DNA of 64,000 nt from Eledone cirrhosa (GCA_964016885.1 OZ024740.1:132742001-132806000), one strand, 5' to 3'. Counted from the stretch's first letter, positions 836 to 24,558 are shown. Numbers and translations: made by a program. The notes: generated from the sequence alone by a model not told the origin.

Positions 836-892
836 TTATTATTATCATTATTATTATTTATTATTATCATTATTATTATTATTTTTATTATT
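836..892. repeat. (TTA)n microsatellite, first spacer of the retrotransposon array
   Basis: Imperfect ttattattatc.. run abutting the 3' end of the R4/Dong copy. Similar tracts lie at 1949-1963, 2139-2152, 8595-8622, 14458-14498, 14929-14973, 19991-20030, 21431-21463 and 21571-21601. Confidence 0.95.
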
Positions 893-1948
893 ACAGTTGG
901 ATTTATCTTGCTTTATGTTCATACGAGTTATCACCAAGTCACAACCAGTGATCTCAAGAGACAACAAGGGCCGCCATGTTCAAGAAAGAACATACATTCA
1001 CACACATGCATCTTTAGGTGTTTAGACTTGTGATGTACTTATATTGACTTAATTTTCCTTAGTATATGGGCAGTTCCCATTAGTATTATCTTTTGTATTT
1101 CTCCTATACGCGGGTTTCCTGGGATTTGCGATAAGTAATCATTAGCCCCCATAGGTACAATTCCTAGAGCGCCTACAACCACTGGTATTATTTTAGTTCT
1201 CAATTTCTACATTTTTCCATTTTCTATCTCCAAGTCCTTATACTTGCTCAATTTTTCAAATGTTTTTATAGATACATTCTTGTCCATTGGAACGGACATA
1301 TCAATTAGCAGGTATAATCTCTTTTTAAAGTCCTTCAGTATTATATCAGGTCTATTTGCATCTATTTTTTGGTCTGTTTGGATGCTAAAGTTCCACAATA
1401 TTGAGATGTGATCGTTTTGAAGTACGGGAGGTGGTTGATGCTCTCACCAATTCTTTTGATGGGGCAGGTCAAAATGCTTACACATTATCCAATGTATGTA
1501 TTGTGCAGCTCTGTCATGCCTGTTTAAGTATTCGGTTGGAGCTATAGGACTGCACATTGAAATTATATGGTCAATGGTCTCTGGTCGTTTTTTACATACA
1601 CGGCATAATGGGTGGCATCGACTTTTTAATATGTTGGCTTGGTAATTTTTTGTTGGCAGACACTGATCTTGTGCTGATATAATCAGTCGTTCAGTCTCTG
1701 ATTTCATTCCAGAGGATGCCAACCACTGATGGGTTAAAGTTTTGTCAACATCAGGATCGTTATTTCTTTCTGGGTATTTTCCACACGAAGGCTTTTCTTG
1801 CCATTTATTAGCGAGTTTCTGTACCAGTTCTTTCTTTGCAATTACTTTTATCTGATGTGCTTTTTCTGTGTTTTTCATTTCAGCAGTAAATGGAACTTCT
1901 TAAATGTGTAGTCCATTACTGTATCTGTGTACATCTTTTGTAATGGTC
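893..1948 (-). mobile_element. 5'-truncated R4/Dong-clade non-LTR retrotransposon, family A (C-terminal CCHC zinc knuckle + REL endonuclease + 3' UTR)
   Basis: ORFs 1444..1878 and 1207..1398 give SETERLIISAQDQ, CRVCKKRPETIDHIISMC, RHD and PDII..LIDMS..K..KY.DL. Highly similar to 14974-16220. The 3' end runs into (TAA)n on the element strand. Confidence 0.9.
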
Positions 1949-1961
1949 TATTATTATTATT

Positions 1962-2138
1962 ATTGGCAGTATCGGTAGAGAGTCGGGCGCCATGCTTTCC
2001 AGCATAGTTACGTCCCTTTACGATCTGAGTTCAAATCCCGCCGAGGTTGACTTTGCCTTTCATCCTTACGGGGTCGATAACATAAAGTACCAGTAATGCA
2101 CTGGGTATTTGCTGGCCTTGTGCCTAAAGTAGAAACAA
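1962..2138 (+). mobile_element. tRNA-derived SINE
   Basis: A-box-like tggcagtatcggt, B-box gagttcaaatcc, body ..ggggtcgataa.ataaagtaccagt.., ending tagaaacaa(tta)n. More than 10 copies in the window. Confidence 0.9.
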
Positions 2139-2254
2139 TTATTATTATTATTGTTGGTGAAGCCACACTTCTTATCGCCTCCAGCTTTTTTCAACCGTTT
2201 ACGGGGTGTGGTATCCGTATTTGTGTAAAAATATTTGTTTTGAAAAATTTCAAC

Positions 2255-4301
2255 ATGGATAACACATGAAAGAGAGAGAGCGCTGTCAGACAACACAGAG
2301 AGAGGGAGACTTTATCAGCATGTCAACAAGACAGCGTTCCAGCGGAGGTAAATATAAATAAAAATATTACAAAGGAAAAAAAGATTGTTACAGATTTAAA
2401 ATTAACAAATATTTCTAACACAAACAACACCAACAATAACACCAACAATAACACCAACAACATCACCAAAAATAACAGCGGTAAAGTCGAGAACGGCAAT
2501 AACAAAAATAACAGCGGTAAGGTCGAGACCGACAATAACAATGACAATAACAACAGCCACAACAACAATAATAGTAGGAACAGTATCAACGAAATCAACA
2601 ATAATAACAACAGCCACAATAAGAGTAACAACAGCAACAGTATCAACGAAAACAACAACAGCAACACCAACAACTGTACCAACGAAAACAACAACAATGA
2701 CACCGATACCTGTAACAGCGATCTCAGCACCACCAGCAAGACCAGTGGCAGCAGCAATAATGGTGCTGCTGAAAAAGGCACCTCTTCTTTTGCAGGCATT
2801 AGTCACAGAGGAGGAGATGGCAGTCGCAAGGGCTATGGTGGCAAGAAGCGCAAATAGGGTTTCCCTGAAACCGCCACCCGATTTTTTCAAGGACCAGCAG
2901 CTACGGACGGTGACTTACCGCACCGTAAACAAAATCTCACATCGAGTGGAGAGAGCCAGGGAGGCTCAAATCCAAAAGGCCTTGGGGTGCGTCTGGGCAC
3001 GCAAAACCCACATCACCCGAGGCAGAAAGTACGCCACAGTAGACGTACTTTTCGCCACCCCCAGGAAGCAAAGTCTCACTCTTTGGAACCCTAAAGAGTG
3101 AGGAGAGTCTTGGTGCCCTCCTACTGCAGGCAGAAGATTGTGAGGGTCAAAGTGACCCAGGTCCCACCCGACGTGCCCATACCTTGGCCGGCCGCGTCTG
3201 TCCTTGATGGAATCGAGAACAGGACGACCATGCTGCAAGTAGAAAAAATAGGGAGAGAGAACTGGTCAGGTATAGGCATGCAAATACTTATACAAACTGA
3301 CCAGGAATGTATCGACGCTAACCCCGATATCATAGACATCGAGGAAGGACTCCAACTCCCTATAAGTGTAGTAGGAAGACGGCCAAAATGTTATCTCTGT
3401 GGGTTTAAGGGTCACCTCAGGGCCTTTTGCCCGCAGAAGACAGCGAAGAAGGCCCCTCTCCATCCAATACCTGGTCCGCTGCTACCAAGAGCAGGGCAGG
3501 AAACAAACGAAGAAGCCCCTTCCACGGTGAGTACGAGGGCAACGTCCGTAGCACCCGTACCAAGGCCACGGACAACTAAAGCAGCATCATCAGTGGCGGC
3601 AACACCAATAGGTACATTTGAAGTAGCTACACCCGCAACAAAATTGCCGAAGATGGCTCCACTACCACCACCAACAGCCGTGTAGCACATACCCCTCCCA
3701 GACGCCACAGAATCCGACATGGAGTTTGAGTCGAGTGAAGTGGCAAACGGTCTGTCACAAAAAAGAAAAAAGAAAAAAACCCTTAGATTCACCCTCCAAA
3801 AGCGAAGGCATGCAAAGAGGGGTAAAGGCAGCAAGGAAACTTGCAGCAACACCACCACCATCACCACCACAAGCACCACTGACAACAACAACCACACCAC
3901 CACCAGAGTCACCAAAGGCACCAACAACGCAAACCCAACAAGACACACACACCAAACAGCAACAAGAAGAAAACAGCAAGAAATTCACCCCTCCCAACAA
4001 AAAGTACACAGCCATAAACATGTCAAAAAAAGAACTCATACAATATATAAAGCAGCACACAGACATCACAGAAAAAAACTACTACACCCCACCAACAGCA
4101 AGAACTCTCCCGACAAACATAAGCATCATCGAAATCTCAATAGAATAGTACAAACCTTTAAAACAAAAATTCCCCAACGCAGTTGGAGACTTCAGAGGGA
4201 CGGTTACCAAGAGGATATACACTGACATCCTCTTGGAAACACCGATGACCAGCGAAAGGAACGATTCTACTGTCCTTTCATCACACGAACAAGGTAAGTG
4301 A
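2255..4301 (+). pseudogene. Tx1-like ORF1 (Asn/Thr-rich N-terminus, RRM-like region, CCHC zinc knuckle, basic tract), frameshifted
   Basis: caacATG at 2255. Fragments 2541..3101, 3098..3685 (CYLCGFKGHLRAFC) and 3726..4148 align with ORF1 of copy 2. Confidence 0.75.
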
Positions 4302-4333
4302 CCCTTTCTCACTTGCCCCGTTTCTCATCCAAC

Positions 4334-7300
4334 ATGGCCGTACACAGAATATGCAGTATAAATGCACGTGGCCTGGGGTCATCTTGGAAGCAGGGTCAGC
4401 TGCTCAACGACCTCAGGTCACTAAACATAGATGTGATGGCCATCAGTGAAACGAGAATCTTCGAAGCACAAGCCTTCGCATCGATCTTCGGCGGCTACGA
4501 TGTATCCGCATCTCCCAGCTGTCCTGGATCGGGAGGAGGGGTCGCCGTCCTTTTTTGGAGAGGCCTGGATCTCGCGGTACGGGCCATCTTCCTAGATCCA
4601 GAAGGTAAGTTGGTGGTGGTGGACGTGACCGGCAGCGAAGGCAATGCTTTCAGGCTAGTAGCCGTCGACGCACCAACAGGGGCAGGACGGCCAGATTTCT
4701 TCAGACGTCTAGAGACCTTTCTTGGAACGTCCCGCTTTTTAGTGTTAGTGGGCGACTGGAACGGTATATTGGATCACGCTGGGATCGTGTGGGGCTAGTG
4801 GATAGGGGAGGAGGGTGCAAGAACCTCACCAACCTGCTCAGACGTTTTGAATTGTCTGACAGGTATCGACTGGATCACCCGAATGTGCCAATGTGGACAT
4901 GGACAAACTGCATCGGGTCTTTCAGATCGTATCTCGATAGGGTATTCTGCAGAGAACTAGATAAGGCTAGTATAAATTGTCCATAATTTAAAATAGTCGA
5001 CTGCACAGACCACAAATTTGTGACCTGTGAGATCGACATAGACAGACTTCATAGACAAGGGCCTGGTTACTGGAAGATGAACGCTTCTTTCCCGGCGAGC
5101 AAAGCCTACAGAGATCGGAGAAGTGTATTATCTAGCGGGCGTTGACGGGAGCGATCGTCAACAACAGGTGGTGGTTCGCCCTGAAAAGGGCAATTATAGT
5201 AGAGTCGATTAGGTTTAGCAAAGGAGTAGTGATAGAGGAAAATAGAGTAGAGAGAGAGCTAGTCAGAAAGCTAGAAGAGGCGTTTAGGACAGGCATCGCA
5301 ACCGACGTGCTTGCGGCAAGATTGGCACTCGACCAATTCTTCAACGCAAATCACGAAGGCTGCGTTGTCAGAGCTAGAGCGCGTTCTCTGAAACACGAGG
5401 GGACAACAGCCGTCCAATGGGCCCGAGTGGCAGAGGCGCGACGTGGCAACAAAGCCACAATTCGGTCTTTGTCTGACCAAATCGGGTGCGTGATGCTCGA
5501 ACACGAGCGGATGTGTGAAGCTTTTCAACAGCACTTTGCTGAACTGTTTGGGAGCGGCGGCGGCACGGATCGGAGCATGGACTTCAGTGCATAACTCGAC
5601 GGACTGCCTCGGCTCCCAACGACCGCAGCACAGTGTTGCGAAAAGCCAATAACATCCGGTGAAATACGGGAAGCGATGGCTAACGGCACAAGGGGTAAAT
5701 CGCCAGGTTTGGATGGTCTGCCCTACGAGCTTTATGCATTTATGCCAGACTTGTTCGGTGACTTCTTGGCCGACGTCTACTGCAACTGGCTGCAGAACGG
5801 GAGCATTCCCACTTTAGTGAGCCGGGGAGCAGTGGCGCTGATGAGAAAAGACCTGAACAAGGGGGATGTTATCGATAATTTCAGGCCCATAACCCTGCTA
5901 AATGCAGAGTTCAAAATGTTGGCCAAGGTGTTAGCAACGAGGTTGGCGCTTGTCGTCAAGGGTCTGGTGGGAGAGGAGCAGACATGCACCATTCCGGACT
6001 GATCCTTACACGACAACCTCCACCTCATACGATACATGATAGAGAGGGTGATTAAGAAACCTGGCAAGGGTGGGGCTCTGAGCAACTTGGATCAATCCAA
6101 AGCATTCGATAGGATCGACCATCGGTACCTGGCGGCGGTCCTCGAGGCAGCCGGTTTCGGGCCCGTTTTCAGGGGTTGGATCGCAGCAATGTACATCGAC
6201 ATATGCTAAGTTGTGAGGGTGAACAGTCACCTGTCGCAGCCGTTCAGCATCATGCGCTCAGTCCGCCAGGGTTGTCCCCTCTCGTCCCTCGTGTACGTAT
6301 TGGCTCTCGAGCCGTTACTGCACAAACTGGGGCCTCTGAGGGGCGTCCCACGCGAACTAGGATGCGGGAAATCCGAGTCGGCTTACGCTGACGACGTCAC
6401 CGTGGTGGTGTCGAGCACCAGACACGTCCAGATGCTCGGCACCACTCTCAAGGAATAAGAAGCGGTGACAGGAGCAAAGATAAACCAGGAAAAGTCGGTG
6501 GGCTTGCAGCTCTTGGCACCTGGAGATGCAAGTCCATGCCGTCCGACAGCGTCGTGGGGCGTTGGACGGACAGATCGGTTAAATTGCTCGGGGTCTGGTT
6601 CCGACCTCCCCTCTAGATGGAGAAAAACTGGAATGAGGTGACGAGCAGCGTGGCCTCCCTCACCCAGAAATGGGCTGAGAGGAAGCTGTCCCTGAAAGGC
6701 CGGGCGGAGGTGGCGAAGCGTACATCGCATCCGTCATCTGCTACCGCTTCGCCGTCGTCCCTTGCTCCAGCCCAACTCTCAGCAAAATGGAACGCTTCTT
6801 CTTCCGCTTTTTGTGGAAGGGACGCGCTCCCATGGTCAGACGATCCAGCTGCTCTCAACACCCGTTGTGTGGAGGACTGGGCTTGCCATGGCTGATGATG
6901 CGCAAACATGCGCTGAGGCTGCGACATCTCTGGTGCTTCCTTGATGGTGAAAAGGTGTGGTCGCCGTTCGCCAGGCACGTTTTCCCACAGCTCTTCTCCA
7001 TGACGAACTGCAGTTCTGGGTCAGAAAAAGACCGAGGGATAGCGCTTGGAAACTGGAATGTCTCCAGGCGCTCACTGCACTCTGCCAGCTGGGCACCAGA
7101 ATCGGTGGAACATCCACCTCCGCGTTCTATAGAGGACTAGTGGAGAGGAAGAGCGACGACATTCTCGGAGAGATCCTGGGCGCCGAAGAAGATCAGCTGT
7201 TTCCTCTCTTCCGGAGAACTTTCAGCCCGGGGCCTATGGATAACTTCCAAAAATCCCTGGCCTGGCAGTGCTACCGGGGAGCGCTGCCGGTTCGAGATAA

Positions 7301-7443
7301 GCTGTACAGGCACGGAAGTGCCGTCAGCCTAGCTTGTACGAGATGCGCGCAGAGCGACGAAACCGTCGTGCACGCACTCGTTCAGTGCTCGAGCATGGCT
7401 GACTTGTGGAGCTATGTCGAACAGTTGCTGTCGCGTGTGGGAC
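4334..7443 (+). pseudogene. Tx1-like ORF2 (APE endonuclease, reverse transcriptase, zinc motif), multiple stops and frameshifts
   Basis: SINARGL, ISET, VGDWN, KSPGLDGL, FRPITLLN, DQSKAFD, RQGCPLS, AYADD, CTRCAQSDETVVHALVQC. Confidence 0.9.
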
Positions 7444-7470
7444 ATCCAACTACTTCTCACTGTCGCGTGT

Positions 7471-8590
7471 CAAGCACATCCAACTCCTTCTCACTCTTCC
7501 CGAAGAGCTTAAGATCGTCCATGAAGAGGAGGTGATTGATGGTAAGCTCTCCTTTTCCCAACTTGTATCCTGCTCTCACTTTTCGCAGTATAATGGTCAG
7601 GGGCATCAGGGCAAGGACAAACAACAGAGGGGACAGACTATTTCCCTGGAAGATACCTCTCTTGATCTTCACGCCTCCCAAGGTTTCTCCAGCTGATGTT
7701 AACTCTGTTTTCCAGGACTTCATACTTTTGCTCAACAACTGTCTGATGTTATCTGCCACCTTGAAGATATCTAGGCTTTTGGAGATCCAAGAATGAGGCA
7801 ACATGTCAAATGCCTTTTTGTAGTCTATCCATCCCATGGCAAGACCAGTGTGTCTCCTCTTGCAATTCCTCTTTACCATCTTATCAATAAGTAACTGGTC
7901 TTTTGTACCACGGGACTTCTTTCGTCATCCTTTCTGTTCGTCCGGTAACAAGTTGTTTGTGTGGAGGTGATGGTAGATTTCCTCAGACATAATGCTTGTC
8001 AACAGTTTCCACATTACGGACAGACATGTGATAGGTCTATAGTTGATTCGGTGTTTCATTACACGAACTGTGGTACATTTTGTCAACCACTCTGGTACCT
8101 CACCTGACATCAATCAGTCATTGAACATGGTTGTCAGTTTCGGGTGGAGGGATGTTATATTCCCCTGGACACCATCTGGGCCAGGCGATTTCCAGTTGGT
8201 TAGTTTTTTGGCCTGCTCCTTAAGAGTTTCAACTGTGATACTGAAATCAGTTTGTTGGTGTGCCTGTTCACTAATCTCCTTTTGTACTGTCTCAATCCAT
8301 ACTGCCTGGTCATTATGTTTAACATCCTGCTCCCATATTCCTCTCCAGAATGTCTTGTTTGTTCCGCCTCTGGGACCAAGTCGTTGCCTCTTTCTTCCCC
8401 TTCAAGCTGTCCAAACAGCATCTTCTGGTTGTTGTCAAACATGCGGTTCTGTCAATTGTGACTGACTCTGCTCTCGTATCGCCTAATTTTTGCACTCTTT
8501 GCTACAATTCGTTGCTTCAGTTCCTCTATGATATTATTTAGCTTTTTCCTCCTAGTTTTGTACTTTATTTCCAGTCTATTTTAAGTGTCT
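7471..8590 (-). mobile_element. R4/Dong-clade RT fragment (probably family B)
   Basis: [43 protein letters not shown] in ORFs 7925..8113 and 7457..7879. The 5' side abuts (TTA)n at 8595. Confidence 0.85.
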
Positions 8591-8839
8591 ATGTTTATTA
8601 TTATTATTATTATTATTATTATTGGCGACCTACGTAGTAAATCGTATCATCGTGAGCTCCGCAAAGGTTTGTTATTTTCAGTTATTTAAAATTGACATTT
8701 ATGGAAAATGTTTATTGTTAACTATATATAAGTGCACATACATTGATTTCTGAAAAGGACACTCAAAAATATTGGGGCCTTGAGCCCAAAATTTAAACTT
8801 TTTATAATTATCAAACAAAATTTTTTTCTTTGAAAAATA

Positions 8840-10817
8840 ATGGATGACTCAGATTCACTCCTTCCTCACAATCCAACACCTCACACCGACACCACCATTG
8901 TAAACATTGTTACGTTTGCCAACACTGGAATTGTAAGCAGTAGCAATATTTTAAATTCGTCTCAGGCAGACGTTCATTTCCCGCTATTACCTTTGACTGC
9001 AGGTGTTAAAGCCGCCACCACCACCACCACCGCGACAACCACCACCCCCACCACCACCACAGCAACAACAGAAACAAAACAAAAGAAAAATAAATTAACT
9101 CATGATATCGAAATGAATTCGACCAAAATGAACTATTCCACACCGAACACCACTGACGCCACCACCACCACAACAGAAACTAAACTTAACAATAGCAAAA
9201 ATAACGATAATAACAACAGCAACAATGAAATTTAGAAAACTACCCTGAGTTTTGCCAGAGTAGCAAAACAGTGCGAAGTGATTCAGGTAACTCAGGAAGA
9301 ATTAGACGAAGCCAAAGGAATGGTAAAGAAAGATGGGTACAGGGTCAGTCTCACCCCCCCCCCCCCACCTAAAATGGAGCAACGTCGCCTATGCACCGTG
9401 TCTTATCGGACAATAAACATAAAATCGCGCCGAGTGGAACGGGCATCTGAGTCCCAAATCCAAAAAGCTTTGGGACATGTGTGGGCAAGAAAAACCCACA
9501 TCAGACGTGGGCAGAAGTATGGAACTGTGGACGTGTTCTTTGAAACACCAGAGGAGTCTAGAGAACACTCCATGGCCCCATTAAGAAGTGACGACTTTAC
9601 ACTCGTCCCAAGCTATTGTGGCCAGAGACTCGTAAGGATCAGGGTGACCCACGTTCCACCGGCCATCGAAATTCCCTGGCTAATAGCGGCCGTCCACGCC
9701 GGCATCGAAGCCAACACACAGATAATAGCAATAGCAAAAGAAAAGCAGGAGAACTGGTCCGGATCTGGGATGGAGCTCCTGATCCAAGCGGACCAATAAA
9801 GCATTGAGGAAATCCCAGAGGTAATAGACCTCACTGACGGCAGCCACCTCACCGTAATTGTCGAGGGCAGAAGGCCTAGGTGTGTCGTTTGTGGTGAAGG
9901 AACCCACCTAAGGACTTTCTGCCCTCAGGCTAAAAGGTTGAGGCCACCTCTCCTACCCACCCCACTGACTCAACCATCAACACCACCAGTATCAGAGATG
10001 GCAGCAACAAGTGTAGCAGCAACAACAGAAGCAACTATAACAGCAACAACCCCAGCAACAGTAGCAAAGCCAACAACACCACCACCCAACGCTTCAGAAC
10101 TAGTACCAGCGCCTACACCATCCACCACACCACAACCAAAACTAACGCCTGTGGAGGATTTTCCACTCCCCGGCCTATCACAACTGGAGACAGATTGTGA
10201 CGACGAGGAGTGGGAAATGGTATCAGGAAAAATGAAAAAAAGAAACCCAAAAAGAAAATAGAAACCAAAAAAGAAAAAATTCTCTTCCTTCCCCCTCCAA
10301 AAACAAAATACAGAGGGAAACAAATAAATTATCGAACAAGAAAGTTAAGACAGATATGCCACCATCCACACCAGCATCACCAACCCCATCACCACAAACA
10401 CCAACACCATCACCATCATTAACCCCAACACCACTATCACCAACACCACAAAAGTCACCAAAAAGCGAAACAAAAACTAACCCACAACAAACACAAACAA
10501 AACAAATCAACCAAAACGATACACACTACACAGCATTAAATTTGAACAACAACCAATTATTACACTACACCCAACACAACACCAGCATCACAGATAAAGA
10601 CTACACAACAACCCAAAAGTTCACACCACATTCACACATACAAATCACTCGCATCACACAGAAAACGTACATGACACTAAAACGAAAATTCACCAAAGAC
10701 ATCGGAGCTTTCCGACAAGCACTCTCCAGGAGGATTTATAAGGACATCCTTCCTGAGGAGGCCACAAGCAGTGAAAAGAATGGAGAAACCGTCCTTCCTC
10801 TACGAGAAGTAAGGTAA
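8840..10817 (+). pseudogene. Tx1-like ORF1 of copy 2, interrupted
   Basis: ORF pieces 8840..9235, 9278..9799, 9938..10261 and 10356..10817. QIQKALGHVWARKTHIRRGQKYGTVDVFF matches copy 1. Knuckle CVVCGEGTHLRTFC at ~9881-9922. Confidence 0.8.
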
Positions 10818-10851
10818 GTGGTCTTTCCCATCTTTTCCACTCCATTTCAAC

Positions 10852-13800
10852 ATGACCTCACTCAGAATAGGCAGCATAAATACGCCTGGCTTGGGATCGT
10901 CATGGAGGCAGGGCCACCTGCTCAACGACCTCAGGTCACTAAACATAGATGTAGTGGCCATCAACGAGACCAGAATCTCCGAAGCACGGGCCTTCTTCGG
11001 CGACTACGATGTGTACGCATCTCCCAGCCGTCCGGGATCGGGGGAAGGAGTTGCTGTGCTTTTTAGGAGGGGTTTGGATCTCGCCATGCGGGCCATCTTC
11101 CTGGACTCAGAAGTTAAGTTGGTGGTGCTGGACGTGACCAGCGGAGACGGGAAAGCTTTCAGGCTAGACGCCGTCTATGCCTCGACAGGAGCAGGGCGGC
11201 CTGATTTCTTCCGGCGTCTGGAGACCTTTCTTGGAACGTCCCGCTCTTTAGTGTTAGTGGGCGACTGGAACGGGATCTTAGATGCACGCTGGGACCGTGT
11301 GGGATTAGCGGATTGGGGAGGAGGGTGCAAGAGTCTCACCAACCTGCTTAGGCATTTTGAACTATCTGACAGTTCGCATAGGGTCATCCAGATCATATCT
11401 AGATAGAGTATTTTGTAGGGAAATAGATAGGTCTAGCATAGGCTGTCCACAATTCAAGATAGTCAGCTACACGGACTACAAATTCAAGATCTGTTTGCTT
11501 GACTTAGATAGGCTTCATAGACGAGGACCCGGCTACTGGAAGCTAAACGGGTCCTTACCAGTTCACAAGGCCTACAGAGACCGGATACCGAACTAGTTAA
11601 GCGGGCGTTGACGGGGCCCATCGTCAAAAACAAGTAGTGGTTTGCTCTGAAAAGAGCAATTAGAATAGAGTCCATTAGGTTTAGTAAGGCTTTAGCAATA
11701 GAGAAAAATAGAGTAGTGAGAATTAGTTAGAAATTTAGACGAGGCGCTTAGCAAAGGCATCGCGACCGACGTACTTGCGGCGAAATTGGCCCGTGACCAA
11801 TTCTTCAATGCAAAGCACGAACTGCGTTGTCAGAGCTAGGGTGAGTGATCTCAGACCTCGAGGGGACGAAAGCCGTTCAATGGGCCCGAGTAGCGGAGGC
11901 GCGTCGTGGCAACAAAGCCACGATACGATCTTTGGTGGACCACGACGTGCGCATGCTACTCGATCCCGGTCAAATATGTGAAGCTTTTCAGCGACACTTC
12001 GCACAGCTGTTCGGGGGCAGCAGCGGGCCGGATCGAGGGATGGACTTTAGTGTCTACCTTGTCGGACTGCCGCGGCTTTCGCCCAGTGAGGCGGAGTGTT
12101 GCGAAAAGCCGATAATAGCCGCTGAAGTACGGGAGGCAATGACTGGCTGCACAAGGGGTAAATCGCCTGGTTTGGATGAACATTACGTACAGATGCAAGA
12201 TTTGTTCGGAGGCATCTTGGCGGACGTCTACTGCAACTGGCAACAGAAAGGGAGAATTCCCAGCTCTGCGAGCCGAGGAGCTGTGGCGCTGCTGAGAAAG
12301 TGTCCGAACAAGGGGGATAACATAGATAATTTCAGGCCCATAACTCTGCTAAACACAGAGTCAAGATTTTGGCCAAGGTGCTAGCAAAGAGATTGGCGCT
12401 TGTCGTTGGTGGTCTGGTGGGAGAGGCGCAGACGTGCGCCATTCCCAACAGATCCATCCACGATAACCTCCACCTCATGCGATACATCGTAGAGAGTGTA
12501 GCTAGGGAACCTGGCACGGGTGGATCCTTGCTCAATTTAGATCAGATGAAAGCTTTCGATAGGGTCGACCATCGTTACCTAGCGGCAGTCCTGAGGGCGA
12601 CAGGCTTTGGGCCCGTCTTCAGAGGCTGGATCGCTGCCATGCACAGCGACATCTGCTCTGTGGTGAGAGTGAACGGTCACCTTTCAGAACCGTTCAACAT
12701 ATTGCGCTCGGTCCGCCAAGGATGTCCCCTCTCGTCTCTCCTGTAGGTATTGACTCTCGAGACATTACTGCACAAACTGGAGACGTTGAGGGGCGTCCCG
12801 CGCGAACTAGGATGCGGAAGATCCGTGTCAGCATATGCGGACGATGTCACCGTAGTGGTGTCGAAGGCCGAACACATCGAGGCGATCGGCACTACACTAA
12901 GAGAATACGAAGCGGTGACAGGAGCAATGATCAACCAGGAAAAGTCAGTGGGCCTGCAGCTCGGCACCTGGAGAGGCAGGTCCATGCCGTCCAACAGCGT
13001 CGTCGTACGCTGGACGGACCGGTTAAATTGCTAGGGGTCTGGTTCGGTCTGGACCTCCATACGGACAAATACTGGGACGAGGTGACGAGCAGGGTGGCTT
13101 CTCTCACCCAGAAATGGGCCGAGAGGAAGCTATCCCCGATGGTCGAGCGGAGGTGGTGAATGCGTACGTCGCATCCGTCATCTACTACCGCCTGACCGTC
13201 GTACCTTGTCCTAAGCCCCGCCTGACTGCGCTGGAGCGTTTGCTCTTTCGCATTTTGTGGAAGGGACGCGCTCCGATGGTCAGGCGGTCCATATCGTGTC
13301 AACACTCGCTACGTGGTGGGCTGGGCATGCCGTGGCTGATGATGAGCAGACACGCGCTCACGCTACGACATCTCCACCTCTTCCTCGACGGTGATCAGGT
13401 GTGGTCGCCGTTTGCTAGACACGTATTTCCCAAGCTCGTCTCCTTGACGGAGCTGCAGTCCTGGGTCAAGCGAAGACCGAGAGGGAGCGCCTGGAGACTG
13501 GAATGTCTTCAGGCGCTCACAGCCCTCGACCAATCGGGCAATGTGATCGGTGGAAACTCCACCTTGGCGTTCTATAGGGGATTAGTGGAGGGGAAGAGCG
13601 ACGACGTACTTGGAGAAATTCTAGGCGTCGACGAAAATCAACTAGCCAATCTCTTCGGAAGGACTTTCGGGCCGGGGCCTATGGACAACTTCCAGAAATC
13701 CCTGGCCTGGCAGTGCTACCGGGGAGCTTTGCCAGTTCGGCATAAACTCTACAGGCATGGAGGTGCCGTCAGCCGGGCATGTCCGAGATGCGCGCAGGGC

Positions 13801-14196
13801 GACGAAAACGTCCTGCACGCACTCGTCCAGTGTCCGAGCATTGCTGACTTGTGGGTTTATGTCGAACACCTGCTGTCACGTGTAGGACGGATCCAGCTAT
13901 CAGCTGAGTCCATCGTGAGGATTGCCCCGCCCCCTTCCTTTAGCCGGGAAGGGCAGGCAGTTTTTATCTGTCTGGTGGCCATGGCGAAAGAGATAGTATC
14001 GTGGACACGTTTGAAAGGGCTGAAGACGAGCACTTACCTCTTCGGTGATGCCCTGATTAACTTTTTCAAATTTCATTTGAAAAGGAAAATCAGGGTAGAG
14101 AGGGAAATGCTCTCTTCCCAGCATTTTGTTGAAAGATGGGTGAGAGAGGCAAGTATGGCCCGAATGAATAGGCCTTCTCTGAGTCTGTGTCTGTAA
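10852..14196 (+). pseudogene. Tx1-like ORF2 of copy 2 (APE-RT-zinc motif), frameshifted
   Basis: SINTPGL, INET, VGDWN, FRPITLLN, DQMKAFD, RQGCPLS, AYADD, CPRCAQGDENVLHALVQC; stop at 14196. Confidence 0.9.
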
Positions 14197-14445
14197 ATTA
14201 AGGGTGGAAAACTGGGAGTGGGCACTTGCCCTGGTGGTCAGGACACTGTGGTCTTTTAATGGGCTTTCTCCAAAATGTCCTTCGGAAGTCTCCCCCATAT
14301 TGGGGAATTTTTCATTGTTTCTTTTTTTTTTGTTAGATCCTCTGTTTGTTTTTGTGTTTTTTTTACACGCAGAAATACCCATTTGTACCGTCCTGTATTG
14401 TCCTGTACAATCTTTAATGTCTAATTTGTGTAAAACCTTGTGGTT

Positions 14446-14451
14446 AATAAA
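14446..14451 (+). terminator. Polyadenylation signal of Tx1-like copy 2
   Basis: AATAAA six nt before the (att)n tract, at the end of a T-rich 3' UTR. Confidence 0.6.
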
Positions 14452-14456
14452 GAAAG

Positions 14457-14498
<42 letters not shown>

Positions 14499-14499
<1 letters not shown>

Positions 14500-14903
14500 T
14501 GAGTCTCAGGTATTGATGTTAGTTAACTGGAAAGTTTGTTGAAATGAATATCAAGCCACTACCTGCAGCCTCAGATATTCAGGACGTATCGGAGGGTTCT
14601 TGCTGTGCCCAGCAAGCATGCCTTTTGAAGCGTTCCAAAAAGCGTGAAGGGGCCAATTTTCTTTAACCATCACTGTAAACTTTTTGAGTTAGTTCCTAGT
14701 GCGCCTATGACAATCGGGATCACTTTGACTTCATGGCAGTTCCAAATCCTTTTTACCTCCCACTTTAAGTCCTGGTATCGGTTAATGTTCTCCCTCTCCT
14801 TCTCTTGCACTCTCGTGTCGAATGGGCAGGCCACATCCACAATCAGGCACGATCTTTTTTCTTTGTCCACAACCACCAGGTCAGGTCTATTGTCTTCCAG
14901 TTT
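14499..14903 (-). mobile_element. Short 3' fragment of R4/Dong family B (REL domain + 3' UTR)
   Basis: NRPDLVVVDKEKRSCLIVDVACPFD..ERENINRYQDL. Near-identical to 20033-20425. Bounded by (TTA)n and (TTC)n. Confidence 0.9.
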
Positions 14904-14928
14904 CTTCTTCTTCTTCTTCTTCTTCTTC

Positions 14929-14974
<46 letters not shown>

Positions 14975-15118
14975 AGTTGCATTTATCTTGCTTTATGTTC
15001 ATACGAGTTATCACCAAGTCACAACCAGTGACCTCAAGAGACAACAAGGTTTCGCCATGTTCAAGAAAGAACATACATATTCACACATGCATCTTTAGTG
15101 TTTAGACTTGTTATGTAC

Positions 15119-18100
15119 TTATATTGACAGAATGTTCCTTAGTATATGGGCAGTTCCCATTAGTACTATCTTTTGTATTTCTCCTATACGCGGGTTTCCT
15201 TGGATTTGCGATAAGTAATCATTAGACCCCTTAGGTATCATTCCCAGAGCGCCTACAACCACTGGTATTGTTTTAGTTCTCAATTTCCACATTTTTCCAA
15301 TTTCTATCTCCAGGTCCCTATACTTGCTCAATTTTTCAAATGTTTTTATAGATACATTCTGGTCTATTGGAACAGACATATCAATTAGCAGGCATACCGT
15401 CTTTTGAAAGTCTTTCAATATTATATCAGGATTGGCAGTATCGGTAGAGGGTCGGACGCCATGCTTTCCAGCATAGTTACGTCCCTTTACGATCTGAGTT
15501 CAAATCCCACCGAGGTTGACTTTGCCTTTCATCCTTACGGGGTCGATAAAATAAAGTACCAGTAATGAACTGGGAAATTGCTGGCCTTGTGCCTAAAGTA
15601 GAAACAAATATTATATCAGGTATGTTTGCATCTATTTTTCGGTCTGTTTGGATGCTAAAGTTCCACAAGTTCGAGATGTGATCTTTTTCAAGTATGGGAG
15701 GTGGTTGATGCTCCCACCAATTCTTTTGATGGGGCAGGTCAAAATGCTTACACATTATCCAATGTATGTATTGTGCAGCTCTGTCATGCCTGTTTAGGTA
15801 TTCGGTTGGAGCCATAGGACTGCACATTGAAATTATATGGTCAATGGTCTCTGGTTGTTTTTTGCATACACGGCATAATGGGCTCCACCCATTTTCTATT
15901 ATGTTGGCTTGGTAATTTTTTGTTGGCAGACACTGATCTTGTGCTGATATAATCAGTCGTTCAGTCTCCGATTTCAGTCCAGAGGATGCCAACCACTGAT
16001 GGGTTAAAGATTTGTCAACATCAGGATTGTTAGCTCGCTCTGGGTATTTTCCATACAGAGGCTTTTCTTGCCATTTCTTAGCCAGTTTCTGTAGCAGTTC
16101 TTTCTTTGCAGTTACTTTTACCTGCTTTGCTTTTTCTGTGATTTCTATTTCAGCAGTAAATGGGACTTCTGAAATTTGTAGTCCATTACTGTATCTTTGT
16201 GCATCTTTTGTAATGGAATATGATATTTTGATGCTTTCGTGTTTCAAAACGAGTTTGATCATCCAATCATGTGATTCCCTTAGATATGTAGATAATTCAA
16301 TTGTTGCAGTTTTCAACGCAATGTCTAACTGGATTAACCCACGTCCTCCTTCTTTCCTAGGGAGATATATTATATCTATATCTGCCTTAGGGTGATACAT
16401 TCTGTGCATGGTTAAGAATTTTCGAAATTTTGTATCGAGCCTACGGATCTCTGTGCTTGACCAGTTGATGACATTGTAACTGTAGGTTACTACTGGTATG
16501 GCAAGCGTGTTTATGGCATCGATCCTATTCCTTGCATTCAATTCCGTTCTTAAGATTGCTCTTACCCTGCGGTAACATTTCTTCCTTATCCTTTCCCTCA
16601 TTGTCGATTGCTTGATTCCGTCTCCTTCACAAACACCTAGATATTTGTAAGTTTTTCTTGATCATGTTCTCTTATCACGTTCCCCCGATCAAGATTAATG
16701 TCTGAACTCTTCAGCAGCTTTCCTCTGGTGAACATTGCTTTGGCGCATTTATCTAGTCCAAACTCCATTTTAATGTCATCACTGAACTGCTCCACAGTGG
16801 ATAATAGCCCTTGCAATTGTTCATCATTTTTTGCAAATAGTTTCAGGTCATCCATGTAGAACAGGTGATTAATGGTTTTGTCATAGACTTTATATCCATG
16901 TTTTGTTTCATTGAGCATTTTACTTAATGGTATAAGTGCGATGCTGAATAAAAGCGGTGATAAAGATTCACCCTGAAAAATTCCACAATTAATATTAACT
17001 TCTCCAGCTTCCAGTGATTTTGTTTCACTATTCAAAAGGAGTGTCGTTTTCCATGTCTTCATACTGAATGACAAAAACCTCCTGACAACGGGGGATATTT
17101 TGAAAATCTCTAAACATTTTTCAATCCAACTGTGTGGCAAACTATCAAATGCTTTTTTATAATCTATCCAAGCAATCGATAGATTTTTGTGTCTATTATG
17201 ACAATCTTCCAGTATCATTTTGTTAACCAGAAGCTGATCCTTACAGCCATATGAGCCTCGTTTACACCCTTTCTGCTCAATGGGAAATAGGTCATTTGTT
17301 ATCAGGTGGTCATATGTATATTCAGTTAGGACTGATGTTAAAATGTTATACATTGTGGTCAAGCAAGTTATCGGTCTGTAATTTTTGGGATTGTTTGTCT
17401 CATCATTCTTCGGAAGCAGCAATGTAATGCCGTTAACTAGCCATGATGGTATCTTTTCTGGCTCCTTAACTATTTCATTGTAAAGTTGGGCTAACAGCTC
17501 ATGAGACTCTGTGAAGGCATTTATCCAAAGTTTTGTATTTTGTCTTTTCCTGGGATTTCCATTTGCTGCTTTTTCTTAGAGCCAAGCGCAACTGTTCAAC
17601 TGTTATATTTTCCCATATTTGTTCCTCAAGGTGAGCTGTATCTTTCATTTGTCTGTCTATCCATGGGGCATGTATGTTATGAACTTTTTCTTCGGCCCAG
17701 ATCTTTTCCCAGAATTCTTGCACTTCCTCCTTGGGTGGTATTGATTTAGCAGTTATTGTTGACTTACCAATTTTTCTGTAGAAGTTTCTTTGGTTGTTTT
17801 GGAACATATTATTGTCCTTATAGAATCTAGATCGTTTTTCAAAGCGCCTTATACGAGCAGCTTTGGCCGACACTTTTTGCTTGATTATTTCTATCAGCAT
17901 GTCTATGTCACATGTTGATTTTATACTGTACTTTTTTTTCAATTTTCTAAGTTTAGTTTGTTTAACATGTTCACCTATTTTATAGTTTGTTAAAATTTCT
18001 ATGTCAGATCGGAGAAGGTTTATTTGGCGATTGATGTTCTCTTGCCAAGTAGATTTCTTGTGAGAATTCCTTTCTTTTTTCATCTTCACTCCACATAAGT

Positions 18101-18956
18101 GAGTGGTGACTTTAGCCGATGCATAATAGAGATGATTTAAATCAGTAATGTTTAGTTTGTTTGTGATGATAATGTTTTTGAGAATTATGTTAGTCTTGTG
18201 TATTAACTTTTGGTTCTGTTTGGAGTTCTGGATCTTAGGGAGGGTGTCTCGTTGCCCCATGTCAGATTCTTTCATTTTCATCCATTCGATCATAATTTCA
18301 TCCTTCAAGTTGGCAAGTTCATTCTCATTCATTTCTTTATCATTTACGATCTCATTATTTTCATTTTGAGTTTCATCCTGAGCATGCACTTCCTCCACTT
18401 TTTCGACCCTTTCTTTAATTTGTTCTGTTGCCAGTGATTCCGTCCCAACCCTGGGGTTCGAAGTGTTACAGTTTACCTCGTTTTCACTGACACATGTTTC
18501 ATTTTCCCTTCGCTGACTTTGTGCTAATAGCTTGATCTGATCAATTTCTATATCAGTTAGTAACATTTTTCTTACAATATTTCTTCGTATATTGGCTAGT
18601 TTGTTACTGTCAATATAGCCTCTGTTTTCGGGATGTTTCTTTTTCCAGTTGATATATGTCTGTTCTGTATTCGATGTATTTGATGGGTAGTACATGGCAG
18701 TGTAGAAAGCATCAAGGACTTCTTTATTATCTTCCCTTGACCATTTTTCTCTCTTTTTCTTTGGATTTCTTGGTGGTGAGCATGGAGGGCCAACAGTAGG
18801 AGTATTCCGGTTATGGGAGGTCTCCAGCTCCGAAGTGATGGGAAGGTTTGAACCATTAGCTGATTTTTCGACCCCAGTCTGGTTCCTCTCTGAGGGACGC
18901 GGCCCTTTTTTACCCGGGTGACGGCCGATCCGGTATGAGATTTTATCATTAGACAT
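15119..18956 (-). pseudogene. R4/Dong single ORF (N-terminal domain, RT, CCHC, REL endonuclease), broken by frameshifts near 17520 and 16640 and by a SINE
   Basis: [72 protein letters not shown]....C, RHD, PDII..LIDMS. Confidence 0.92.
15431..15606 (+). mobile_element. tRNA-derived SINE inserted into the R4 endonuclease domain
   Basis: 14-bp target-site duplication aatattatatcagg at 15417-15430 and 15607-15620. Confidence 0.95.
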
Positions 18957-19208
18957 TTACTTTATTTTGTCGCGTTTTCTCCTTATCCGCCAAGGGGTAA
19001 TCATTTCGTGTTACCACTTCTAGAACGAGTGTCAACCAAGACTAGAGGGGTCGTTCTCCCCTAGAGACACGGCTATTCCCCGCCGGCCGCCATCCCGGTA
19101 TTTCTTGGTCACGGGGTTTTCTTTTTGTTGTTTTTTTTAAAATTGTTATTATCATGAGTGGTTCCTTAATGTGAGCATTGCGTGGCTTAAGAATGAAATT
19201 ATTAATAT

Positions 19209-19255
19209 GTGTCTCCACTTCAGGCACAAGGCCAGCAATCACCCAGTGCATTACA
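19209..19255 (-). mobile_element. 3' fragment of the SINE
   Basis: aggcacaaggccagcaatcacccagtgcattac is the reverse complement of the SINE 3' body. Confidence 0.75.
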
Positions 19256-19261
19256 ATAATA

Positions 19262-19990
19262 TAATATACTTTTTGCTGTAGTTGCCTGTTATTGTTGTTG
19301 GCTATGTCGGTGGTGGTGCCGGGGCTTTTTATATTGTTGGTGAGGAAGGTGTGAGCCAGCAGCCCCATAGTTGTTGATGTTGACGTTTGGCCGGTGGCCA
19401 GGTCACTAAGTCAATCTATTTATATCTTTTGCTAGCCTCTCCCTTGTCTAGTGATACCGCCACCTTCCCCTTTCTCTCTCAAGTTAACAGGGGAATAGTG
19501 GTGGTAGCAATAAAGGAGTGGTGGCGGCGGCGATGGGATAGTGGTAGCAAGATGATGGATGGGGTGGTGGCGGCGGTGGCTTCGTGGTTAGTGGGTTTTG
19601 TGATATGTAGTATCTATGAGTTTGTGTTCGTATGTTTAATATATATTGTGTTGACATATTCCCGTAAAATTGGAATTAAACATTTTGTTAAAATTTGAGA
19701 CAATAATAATAGTAATTATTATTATCATGCCGGGATTGATGGTGGTGGTGGTGAAATTGCCGTTATCTGGCTATTATATTTAGTGTGATGGGATAGTTGG
19801 CGTATCAACTTTCTGGTGTTGGTGAAATTGCTGTTATTTGGCTGTTCTATATAGTGTAGACAGAGGGTGTTTTCTTCCATTTATAACCATTTTCTTTTTT
19901 TGAATACAAAATATATAATACAAAATTGAATATTTGAGCGATATAACAATATAATATGGATCCGAAATTTTATGGGACTTCATTCGGTGG
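19262..19990 (-). mobile_element. Possible 5' UTR/ORF1 N-terminal remnant of another LINE (Tx1-like composition)
   Basis: The minus strand is ACC/AAC-rich, like the ORF1 N-termini of the two Tx1 copies, and begins at a (TTA)n tract. No diagnostic motif. Confidence 0.3.
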
Positions 19991-20032
19991 ATTATTATTA
20001 TTATTATTATTATTATTACTGCTGTTATTACT

Positions 20033-21429
20033 CTTTGAGTCTCAGTCATTGATGTTAGTTAACTGGAAAGTTTGTTGAAATGAATATCAAGCCACTACCT
20101 GCAGCCTCAGATATTCAGGACGTATCGGAGGGTTCTTGCTGTTCCCAGCAAGCATGCCTTTTGAAGCGTGAAGGGGCCAATTTTCTTTAACCATCACTGT
20201 AAACTTTTTGAGTTAGTTCCTAGTGCGCCTATGACAATCGGGATCACTTTGACTTCATGGCAGTTCCAAATCCGTTTTACCTCCCACTTTAAGTCCTGGT
20301 ATCGGTTAATTTTCTCCCTCTCCTTCTCTTGCACTCTCGTGTCGAATGGGCAGGCCACATCCACAATCAGGCACGATCTTTTTTCTTTGTCCACAACCAC
20401 CAGGTCAGGTCTATTGTGTTCCAGTTTCTTTTCCTTCTGTAACCTAAAACCCCACAGCACCATCACCTGATCGTTTTCTATCACCGCCTCTGGCTTATGC
20501 TCATACCACTTCTCAGAATGTGGTAAATTGTTTACTTTGCATAGGTGCCAGTGGATCACCCTGACAATCACATCATGTCTCCAGCCCTTATAGTGAGTCT
20601 GGGCTAGGTGTTTACACTCGGATACAATGTGAGCCACAGTCTCCTCTCTCTCTCCACAGATCCTGCACTGTGGGCTAGCCTCCTCCTTGTAAATATGGTG
20701 TTTCAACCACTTCGTTTTGAGGGCTTGCTCCTGCGCAGCCATTAACATTCCTTCTGTAGCCTGTTTAAGGTCTCCTCTTTTCAACCAGTTCCATGTCTGT
20801 GGATCTCTACATTCAGTTTTCTCAAAGAAGGTACTATGAAGGGATTTTTTCCTGAAGACTGCTCTTTCTCCTTGTTGTTATTTCCTCCTTGGACATCCCC
20901 TTGCCTATTGTCCCCTCCTTCAGTACAGTTCTGAGCATTGGCTCCTTACTATCAGTCACGTATTTGTGTAGGTTGTTTTTCTCCATCTGAACACAGTCAT
21001 CTATACTGATAAGTCCTCTTCCAACTTCAGATCTCCTTAAGTAGAGTCTATCGACATCACTCCTCTTGTGGAACATGTTGTAGATAGTCAATAGCTTCCT
21101 AGTCTTCCTATCCATTTCTTTTTGTTCAGCAACATTCCATCTAAGAATTCCCGCACAGTATCTAATAATAGACACAGCTCGGGAATTTACTGCACTTATG
21201 GCATTCCTACTGTTCAGATGTGACTTTAATACGCTCCTTACTCTCCGAATGTATTCAGTTCTTATCAATTCCTTCATTTTTTTGTTCTTGATGTCATCAG
21301 CCTCCAGAACGCCCAAATACTTGTATCCTTCTTCAGAGTCAATTTCCTTTATCATCTCACCTGTTGGTACCTGGATTCCGTTACTTCTGCTCAACTTACC
21401 CCTCTTCATCACAATGACTCCACACTTAC

Positions 21430-21430
<1 letters not shown>
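20033..21430 (-). mobile_element. 5'-truncated R4/Dong family B copy (post-RT region, CCHC, REL, 3' UTR)
   Basis: SKCGVIVMKRGK, YKYLGVLE, LYLRRSEVGRGL, TEGMLMAAQEQAL, CRICGEREETVAHIVSEC, RHD, NRPDL. (TTA)n on both sides. Confidence 0.92.
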
Positions 21431-21461
<31 letters not shown>

Positions 21462-21463
<2 letters not shown>

Positions 21464-21570
21464 CAAATCCCACCGAGGTTGACTTTGCCTTTCATCCTTA
21501 CGGGGTCGATAAAATAAAGTACCAGTAATGCACTGGGTAATTGCTGGCCTTGTGCCTAAAGTAGAAACAG
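21462..21570 (+). mobile_element. 5'-truncated SINE in (TTA)n
   Basis: Starts inside the B box (tcaaatccc) and ends gtagaaacag(tta)n. Confidence 0.9.
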
Positions 21571-23624
21571 TTATTATTATTATTATTATTATAATTATTA
21601 TCGTTGTTGTTGTTGTTGTTGTTGTCTGTGTTGTCATGATGGTATATTACAATAACTTCTATTCTTGTTCGTGGTCATTTTGGTCATATTTATACGAAAA
21701 AAGATATCATCAAATTAATATAATCAAGCAGGAATATTGATATGATATGAGACACACAGGGGCATAGCGTATGTATATATAAACGTGTATATGTTTGTCT
21801 GTGTGGCTTATGGGGGTTGAGCTGTATAAAAGCTTGTCTTAAAACGTCCTAAATTGAAGACACGATTTTGTTTGAATTTTATATAATATCATTATTGATT
21901 TTTTTAAATATATTTCCTATTAAATCCATATTTAAGAGTGTGTATAATGTGCCTGCAACTGTGTGTGTGCAAAGTGTATTTTCATTCATCCATTCATATG
22001 AGACAAATTTAATGTATGAACAACAGAAATGTTAAAATTATACGCCTCACTATGAAAACATCTATAAATATAAATATGTTTTCTGGTTATACGCTTCCAA
22101 CAATGAACATTATAGGAAATGCTTAGGCATTTGTCACAGTGAGGTAAATGTTTACGGAAGTTAAGCTCATTTACTTTACCGCCCACGGAGGGAAAACATG
22201 TGCTGTCGTTATCCAAACTACACACAAACGGGATTTAGAATTAATTGAACCACCAAATTTTCATACACTGCATTCATGATTTCATAATGACGTGATTAAA
22301 TATATAACAAATACGTTCCGGAAATATTCATACACACACATTAAATACCGTCATACACATGTGTATACATACACCTACGTACATACATACATATCTATAA
22401 TCAATTACAAAAGTGGTTTACACTGATACTTAAGTTTGGTTGGGTTTACCACCAACTCATTCAGTCTGAGTGATGGAGTTATTTGCAGGAAGATTCATAA
22501 TTATGTAGGATATTTCTAAAGCTAAGAGTACAAAACTCTAAAACATCTCAATTAACTAAATTAAAATACTTATGGTGAAACTCTACGCATGTAATGGCGA
22601 TAAGTCTAATAAATAGGAGTAACATAGATGCAAGGGATGGCATGTAATATGGGTTAAATCGAATTTTATTCTGGCCAAGCCCATCTCCTGGGTAGGAAAT
22701 TATAGAGGTGTTGTGTTCAAATTTATCGTTGTGGTAAGCTGGGGGTCAGGAGATAAAAGTAATGTGGGTGTGGGTAGTGCTTGTGGGTGGGTAGAAGAGA
22801 ATAGGAAGGGGATGGGGCTTAATGGTCATAGGATAATCGTGGAGAGATTGAGAGGTAAGAATATGTACCGAAGAGACGTAGAAGTTGGAGGAGTACTTTT
22901 AAGAAAAGTATGAATTAAAAAGTGGATCATATAGAAATAAATAAGTATGTTGAGGAGTGAATAGGATGAAATAAAATAAGACAGGATCAAGTGAAATTTA
23001 AGTGTTTAGAAATATATAACTAAGTGGATAGCATGGACGGGTGACATGCGGTAGGGTGTGTGTACTATACGTATGCTTACTGCATGCACACCAACACATA
23101 TACGTATACCGAGGAATTTTAATAATATTACATAAAAATACATGAATAAGCATATCAATTAATACTATAAAGAAAAAATATATGTTAGTATATAAATGAG
23201 TAGCTTACATTCATAGAAAACAGACACTTTACCACAAGTTTATTTTCTACGTGTATATTGACGAGATTATTATTAATTTCTAAGCCCTTAAATTTTACTC
23301 CAGCTTTTTTATATTCTATGTCATCCTATTTACTCATCCTATTAACTCACCTATTTATTAAACTCTTTAGCCATTTGCCCATTTATTTTTATATAACCAC
23401 TTTTTTTTTATTTTTTATTTAAATACTCAAACTTCTAAGCTGTGTCTGTACACCTCTCCTTCTACTCCCCTCCTATCCACTAACTACACCTACCCTCACC
23501 CATATTACTTGAACTGATACACTCAATGCTGTAGCTCCCTACTTCCTCCGTCAGCCCAGCTTACGGTAATGATAAATTGAAGCACAGCTCTAAGACTAAC
23601 GACTTCCTGGTGCCGCGGTCGGGG

Positions 23625-23683: not shown

Positions 23684-23733
<50 letters not shown>

Positions 23734-23781
23734 TATGTATACGTACATACATATATGTATACAGACGTACATTAGTATGTA

Positions 23782-23828
<47 letters not shown>

Positions 23829-24370
23829 GCACACATATATATATTTACGTATGGATTCACCGAACATTTATTATAATGCTCGGTGTGTTTGTAAACAAAC
23901 ATCCCGAATTAAGCCGTACAGCGTCTAGCAACCATCGTTGCTAATTTGTTCAACGATAGCTAATAAGCTTGAAACTAGTACAGCGTTCCTTTGTCAGTGT
24001 TGAACAAATGAGCAACGATGGTTGCTAGACACTGTACGGCTTAATTCGGGATGTTTGTTTACAAACACACAAAGCGTTATAATAAATGTTCGGTGAATCC
24101 ATACGAACATATAGATATGTGTGCATGTATGTATATATATATATATATACATACTACTGTACGTCTGTACACATATATGTATGTATACTTATATTTAAGT
24201 AACAGCCGTACTAAGAGTGAGAAATGAAATTTCGTTTCATTTTTTCCGTTTATCGTTTTCGGTACCCCGACCGATTAACTCACTTGATATGCAATTTAGG
24301 CTGCTCAGCCGTTAATATGCATAAGGACAGTATATACTTTCAGGCATTCAACCATCTGGCAGGAAAGTAT

Positions 24371-24413
24371 ACGTTGCTAACGATAGCTAATAAGCTTGAA
24401 ACTAGTAGCGCGT
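24371..24413 (+). ncRNA. Minimal type I hammerhead ribozyme, mutated core (CUAACGA)
   Basis: acgttg-ctaacga-tagct aata agctt-gaaa-ctag-ta-gcgcgt. Confidence 0.6.
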
Positions 24414-24558
24414 TCCTTTGTCAGAGTTGAACAAATGAGAAACGATGGTTGCTAGACATTGTACGGCTTAATTCGGGATGTTTGTTTACAAACACACCGA
24501 GCATTATAATAAATGTTTGGTGAATCCATACGTATATATATATATATATGTGTGCATG

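Follow-up and report, generated by a model that had tools for sequence, protein, structure and literature searches.

The window analysed here is a stretch of 64,000 nucleotides from the genome of Eledone cirrhosa (GCA_964016885.1, OZ024740.1:132742001-132806000; positions are counted from its first letter). Its region 836-21601 is an array of ten decayed retrotransposon insertions set in tracts of the triplet TTA: five R4/Dong-type elements on the minus strand, and two Tx1-type long interspersed nuclear elements (LINEs) and three short interspersed nuclear elements (SINEs) on the plus strand. The insertions were delimited by self-comparison, open reading frames (ORFs), Pfam domains and tblastn with intact relatives. 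We consider it probable that the Dong-type elements, a Tx1 lineage and the SINE share the TTA repeat as a target, and that the orientation of each is set by which strand primes. The polarised stack is real; most of it is known biology, to which the two Tx1 copies would add one plausible new piece. An earlier note on this DNA had counted at least nine insertions and placed all five R4/Dong pieces on the minus strand and both Tx1-like elements on the plus strand. The count is now ten, and both strand assignments were recovered, the first by tblastn and motifs (5/5) and the second for 2/2 elements.

From left to right, a degenerate (TTA)n tract at the left edge (836-893) meets the 3' end of Dong-A1 (minus), which is followed by a tract, SINE1 (plus), a tract, Tx1-1 (plus), a deletion scar, Dong-C (minus), a tract and Tx1-2 (plus). 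After Tx1-2 come a tract, Dong-B2 (minus), a tract of (TTC)10 then (TTA)15 (14902-14973), Dong-A2 (minus, with SINE2 inside it on the plus strand), a spacer, a tract, Dong-B3 (minus), a tract, SINE3 (plus) and a last tract. Top-level neighbours are separated by tract sequence only at six of the eight junctions, one of these six being the (TTC)10(TTA)15 tract.

Exact (TTA)4 matches number 53 in the window; 48 of them are in the array, grouped in nine tracts that all lie on the plus strand, against 0.13 in shuffles; the clustering exceeds chance, and no (TAA)3 tract was found on the plus strand of the array. Within the array, 1.8% of the sequence is tract, and tracts of at least 12 nt in TTA phase make up 0.13% of the rest of the window. 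Three of them are the most informative: (TTA)5 at 1949-1964 between Dong-A1 and SINE1, (TTA)9.7 at 8595-8623 between Dong-C and Tx1-2, and (TTA)10 at 21433-21463 between Dong-B3 and SINE3. Each is flanked by two 5' ends and is therefore not the tail of any element present, so that these head-to-head tracts are targets or copies of targets. Besides the left-edge and (TTC)10(TTA)15 tracts named above, the others are (ATT)5 at 2138-2152, which is both the tail of SINE1 and the 5' flank of Tx1-1; (ATT)14 at 14458-14499, between the 3' ends of Tx1-2 and Dong-B2; (ATT)9 with a degenerate end at 19991-20033, at the 3' end of Dong-B3; and (TTA)n then (GTT)n at the right edge, 21571-21634. Outside the array (21602-64000), plus-strand TTA tracts stand to TAA tracts as 8 to 1, a wider strand bias.

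The Dong-type pieces belong to at least two divergent families. Family A comprises Dong-A2 (14974-19117, 5' limit approximate), a near full-length single-ORF copy with its ATG at 18956, two frameshifts and the insertion of SINE2, and Dong-A1 (894-1948), a 5'-truncated copy 92% identical to it. Dong-B3 (20034-21432), a 1.4-kb 5'-truncated copy of a second family, has about 40% amino-acid identity to family A, and Dong-B2 (14500-14901) is a 400-bp 3' fragment 94% identical to Dong-B3. Dong-C (7471-8594) is a piece of the reverse transcriptase (RT) region, truncated at 5' and with its 3' part deleted, with about 57% amino-acid identity to Dong-A2 in the RT. The motifs CCHC, RHD, PD..D and EK..KY of a restriction-like endonuclease (RLE) are present in A1, A2 and B3, PD and D in B2, and only the RT in Dong-C. 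Dong-A2 is collinear with the intact 1237-aa protein P0126, which has RVT_1 and no Exo_endo_phos, and the solved structures nearest to the Dong-type proteins are R2 proteins. The database matches of the Dong-type protein are unnamed or generically named, with no named Dong or R4 sequence among them; judged by domain layout, from which the clade name is taken, the minus-strand pieces are R4/Dong-type. Three of the four intact 3' ends pass straight into TAA on the sense strand and the fourth does so after 3 letters, while TAA adjoins the 5' end directly in three of five elements, through (GAA)10 in one, and not in one.

This agrees with published work: TAA repeats are the target of Dong, DongAg and the snail DongBg (PMC3812793), and RLE clades are mostly target-specific (PMC4640811). 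Dong-R4 is an abundant octopus LINE class (PMC13282606, PMC9115989), and in Octopus vulgaris both Dong-R4 and L1-Tx1 are LINE classes with recent activity (PMC13282606). A 5' ribozyme resembling that of hepatitis delta virus has been demonstrated for the Dong of Bombyx mori (PMC3774820); in the decayed Dong-A2, whose 5' limit is uncertain, the corresponding check gave no Rfam match, no match to a simple descriptor and a folding z of 0.44. By eye, a possible stem of 6-7 bp opening with a G-U pair can be seen in the GC-rich 5' untranslated region (UTR) of Dong-A2 (19030-19117, minus).

Whereas Dong-type elements on TAA are expected, the Tx1-type elements adjoining TTA tracts suggest the new point. 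Tx1-1 (2153-7443, plus) is a two-ORF LINE that has lost its 3' end, and Tx1-2 (8624-14457, plus) is full-length; in both, ORF1 has a CCHC knuckle (CX2CX4HX4C) and ORF2 has an apurinic/apyrimidinic endonuclease (APE), an RT and zf-RVT (Pfam Exo_endo_phos, RVT_1 and zf-RVT), decayed by 7 stops and 5 frame changes in Tx1-1 and by 6 stops and 5 frame changes in Tx1-2. A separate ORF1 with a CCHC zinc knuckle is found in the Tx1 clade, and the relatives of our copies carry zf-CCHC. For an intact relative (P0005), the match to human L1 ORF2 has a value of 1e-72 and that to R2 one of 6e-29, and a close relative of ORF2 (P0001, 77% identical) matches a sequence of Argonauta hians at 68%. The name Tx1, in preference to other lineages of the L1 group, is drawn from domain layout and motifs. 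As ORF2 is 76% identical between the two copies and their 5' UTRs are not alignable, they represent different subfamilies. Both 5' ends adjoin a tract, of 15 and 29 bp. At the one 3' end available, that of Tx1-2, AATAAA and 6 further nucleotides are followed by (ATT)14 and no poly(A), whereas a 3' poly(A) tail is the usual state in L1-group LINEs. Thus, all three intact Tx1 ends are on tracts; neither copy lies inside the body of another element, and no Tx1 piece was found in the window outside the array.

In the literature searches we found neither a Tx1 element targeting TTA nor a cephalopod array of Dong and Tx1, although a TTA or ATT target may already be among the published lists of Tx1 targets (the figure and supplements of PMC4494074, Kojima and Fujiwara 2004, Repbase). 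Among 33 of the 84 Tx1 rows of an O. vulgaris repeat table (PMC9115989), most are short matches to families of other species, and flank data are not given there. In metagenome, viral and prokaryote collections, no Tx1 protein relative was found among 197, 6, 31 and 3 pattern matches; viral contigs gave no Dong among three pattern matches, and viral and metagenome contigs gave no SINE motif. Atlas searches returned generic RT clusters only. Heads derived from small nuclear RNA (snRNA) or tRNA on Tx1 had no Rfam support, and in a comparison of endonuclease loops the window's own piece had no structure match.

The polarity seen in the array is repeated outside it. At 33521-34500, 12 kb from the array, a SINE on the plus strand (33521-33702) and an old 3' remnant of Dong-B-like type on the minus strand (33703 to about 34500) meet with their tails, (ATT)3 lying between them. 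The remnant keeps its 3' end (p 0.0055 against the Dong-B2 end), and this pair follows the same rule. Host-transcription bias was set aside as a cause of polarity, considering that the window's SINEs are five on plus and six on minus and that the two LINE classes are opposite; host genes were not searched for.

The SINE requires a separate assessment. In the array, SINE1 (1962-2137, plus) is about 176 bp long and has 2.8% divergence from the majority sequence of the copies in the window; SINE2 (15431-15606, plus) is antisense within the codons of the endonuclease PD motif of Dong-A2, with a 14-bp target duplication (15417-15430 and 15607-15620); and SINE3 (21463-21570, plus) is 5'-truncated. 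The SINEs of the array had been reported as plus, which is true of three of the four copies within its limits, the fourth being an older 3' fragment on minus (19210-19254). In all eleven copies of the window, in either orientation, TTA lies at most 7 letters from the 3' end; the ATT tail is therefore the SINE's own, and its polarity with respect to the repeat is intrinsic and not independent evidence of polarity. Unique target duplications can be read in four of the eleven (14, 9, 19 and 12 bp), and TTA occurs within the first seven letters of every one; that of SINE2 is unique sequence and not a tract, with entry at a short TATTAT motif. Five copies have no readable duplication and two lie between long tracts. 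The SINE machinery has at most a loose preference for TTA on the sense strand, with the same polarity as Tx1.

The SINE contains motifs resembling an A box and a B box, and it had no Rfam match. Octopus SINEs of the tRNA/CORE type (OK, OR1, OR2) are marked by a head derived from tRNA and by a CORE domain. As for its partner, a SINE driven by Tx1-Mar in crocodilians (SINEU) is the precedent for a Tx1-driven SINE (PMC4494074). The last 22 nucleotides before the ATT tail of Tx1-2 (14436-14457) and of the SINE (for example 2116-2137) are identical at 15 positions, ungapped and in register, with a p of 0.0002 when anchored at the tail (a post hoc shuffle) and of 0.42 as a free local alignment. A stronger SINE-3'-like match lies inside the 5' UTR of Tx1-2 (8769-8798, local alignment p 0.008), and no common stable fold of the two 3' ends was found. 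A partnership between the SINE and Tx1 may be taken as a lead only. The segment 8769-8798 is covered by contigs of other runs, so it seems to be Tx1-2 family sequence.

How could one repeat receive elements in opposite orientations? In target-primed reverse transcription (TPRT), the nicked primer strand is complementary to the sense strand of the element, and the opposite orientations of Dong and of Tx1 and the SINE therefore imply different primer strands. Dong, with TAA on its sense strand, would prime on the TTA strand, whereas Tx1 and the SINE, with ATT on theirs, would prime on the TAA strand. With an L1-type nuclease and a poly(A) RNA, use of the TTA strand would be expected; therefore, the Tx1 orientation observed here is not the default. 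This Tx1 lineage would favour TTA, and its strand could be chosen either by the endonuclease or through base pairing between the nicked DNA and an RNA that ends in (AUU)n. Each insertion would leave repeat on both sides, as a duplication and a tail lengthened by slippage, giving more tracts in which the polarity of the founder is kept. Afterwards, a deletion, the entry of a SINE into Dong-A2 and point mutations broke every long copy.

The earlier note had described the array as a self-renewing landing pad shared by two retrotransposons that nick opposite strands. The shared pad with opposite orientations fits all ten insertions, the pair outside the array and the three head-to-head tracts, leaving aside the SINEs as independent evidence of polarity. 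The nicking of opposite strands is suggested by TPRT geometry only; an endonuclease specific for one strand would not be needed if pairing between tail and primer made the choice. Renewal of the pad would be the ordinary outcome of target duplications and tails; all four long copies in the array are broken, and there is no sign of current activity here.

Several observations weigh against a shared TTA target. The same note had the insertions parted almost solely by (TTA)n, which stood at six of the eight boundaries and not at the other two, the deletion scar between Tx1-1 and Dong-C and the 865-bp older spacer between Dong-A2 and Dong-B3. The 5' end of Dong-A2 adjoins A-rich sequence with no clean TAA tract, and the 3' end of Dong-B3 leads into a degenerate tract. 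The nine tracts probably descend from one another, and their common strand does not amount to nine independent events. Nine of the eleven SINE copies are without long tracts on both sides. In addition, the Tx1 evidence comes from just two copies and a single 3' end, all from a window picked for this pattern.

An alternative is that the microsatellite is sought by Dong alone. For Tx1 and the SINE, a few letters of TTA able to pair with the ATT end would then suffice, their short duplications and tails would slip to greater length, and Dong would land later. The SINE speaks for this reading: outside the array it has targeted short TTA motifs within unique sequence (four of eleven copies have unique duplications), SINE2 entered Dong-A2 at such a motif, and the pair at 33521-34500 has just (ATT)3 in common. 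Against it, the tracts at the two Tx1 5' ends measure 15 and 29 bp and belong to one array and, in an AT-rich window where short TTA motifs are everywhere, no Tx1 piece lies elsewhere. We regard this alternative as unlikely, though worth keeping in view; it alters the strength of the preference, and not the polarity or the geometry.

Less likely still, the Tx1 copies could be chance guests of a tolerant transposon hotspot, in which case their position and orientation would be uninformative on targeting. Abundance makes this conceivable: reads aligned to 8480-14620 covered the Tx1-2 family over its whole length (30 bins) in three of the four runs used out of 24, with about 59,000 to 619,000 records, and in O. 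vulgaris 56 Mb of L1-Tx1 and 288 transposable element (TE) hotspots have been described (PMC13282606). The choice of the window because of its pattern is also in favour of chance. Nevertheless, three of three intact Tx1 ends fall on tracts that occupy so small a part of the array, and neither copy entered another element. A rough estimate of the chance of two such ends in one nine-tract cluster of a 2.7-Gb genome, assuming 2,000 to 20,000 copies, was 0.0001 to 0.07. Finally, an origin of the array by tandem duplication, recombination between tracts or misassembly, to which the recurrence of family pairs (A1/A2, B2/B3) and the rearrangement scar at one boundary might point, is very improbable, given that no junction occurs twice, that the paired copies are just 92% and 94% identical with different 5' truncation points, and that SINE2 is present in A2 and absent from A1.

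A TTA target shared by Dong, Tx1 and the SINE can be compared with known systems. The Dong-type elements resemble Dong (Bombyx mori), DongAg and DongBg (Biomphalaria glabrata) in having a single ORF with an RT and a C-terminal RLE, and TAA at both ends on the sense strand; unlike those, two or three divergent families are here stacked at one locus with other retroelements. Tx1 families are known on TC, TTC, TTCC and TTTC repeats (PMC4494074), the microsatellite-specific ones being Kibi on (TC)n, Koshi on (TTC)n and crocodilian Tx1 on (TTCC)n and (TTTC)n (PMC4494074, PMC3812793); a family has been taken as repeat-specific when more than 20% of its flanks are the repeat (PMC4494074). Our Tx1 copies are likewise APE-type two-ORF LINEs with one simple repeat on both sides, and they differ in the TTA unit, the cephalopod host and the lack of poly(A), and in a specificity seen so far in two copies. 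Repeats of the Kibi and Koshi type would, like TTA here, be pyrimidine-rich on the sense strand, if their units are given as sense.

As the earlier note stated, it is published both that Dong is found on TAA repeats and that TRAS and SART are inserted in opposite orientations in the telomeric repeats of Bombyx (PMC10088271). In both systems one tandem repeat receives two LINE families in opposite orientations, and arrays are formed, here with 5/5 Dong on minus and 2/2 Tx1 on plus. However, TRAS and SART are APE elements of a single clade, R1, and reside in telomeric repeats, whereas the partners here, one RLE and one APE (L1-group), belong to unrelated clades and the TTA repeat is interstitial. 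The SINE is similar to SINEU with Tx1-Mar in crocodilians in showing the target preference and orientation of a Tx1 family (PMC4494074); unlike this SINE and its candidate partner, SINEU has snRNA heads and a Mariner target (PMC4494074).

If confirmed, the arrangement would extend the known range of microsatellite-seeking Tx1 elements to another target (TTA) and another group of hosts, and would be a case of two unrelated classes of endonuclease acting on the two strands of one triplet repeat. It would also offer a clean test of whether strand and site are set by the endonuclease or by how the 3' end of the RNA pairs with the primer. No new enzyme chemistry or host function is indicated. In octopus genomes, where LINEs account for 12.9% and SINEs for 11.6% (PMC13282606), it could explain how LINE stacks are formed. 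A broader scenario, which we offer as a speculation that is more likely wrong than right by a good deal, is that in octopods a (TTA)n-specific, poly(A)-less Tx1 is the partner of the abundant tRNA-type SINE; both would seed ATT tails genome-wide and Dong would land on them in antisense, a three-way loop that would build polarised stacks and part of the TE hotspots.

The two boundaries without tracts have their own features. The scar (7444-7470, no strand) contains no TTA tract, and 16 bp from the Dong side and 11 bp from the Tx1 side are copied in it; it looks like templated end joining that followed a loss of roughly 2 kb, a size estimated from the lengths of Tx1-2 and Dong-A2. Over 7428-7495 the sequence alternates Tx1-Dong-Tx1-Dong, with short templated copies, and resembles the product of polymerase-theta end joining. 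The spacer (19126-19990, no strand) is older low-complexity DNA that includes the minus-strand SINE fragment mentioned above; its TTA/GTT/GGT/GAT doublets are 15 on plus versus 1 on minus, and it had no match to any of the 374 proteins compared with it. Its interpretation as a third Tx1 5' end on minus was dropped, the matches being low-complexity only. Since these 865 bp of DNA other than LINE separate Dong-A2 from Dong-B3, the array consists of two stacks rather than one.

Other elements were observed in the rest of the window. Remnants of Penelope-like RT and GIY-YIG type occur at 50537-51964 (minus, recognised by eye) and at 62234-62998 (plus, a weak GIY-YIG match). At 40316-40730, two SINE copies lie head to head, about 50 bp apart, as an inverted repeat. 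A repeat family with a 459-bp period is found by (TA)n tracts at 23684-25200, 49180-49750 and 57380-58330, with inverted copies; it is possibly a miniature inverted-repeat transposable element or helitron-like. Lastly, an (AT)n microsatellite of about 1 kb occupies 54865-55925.

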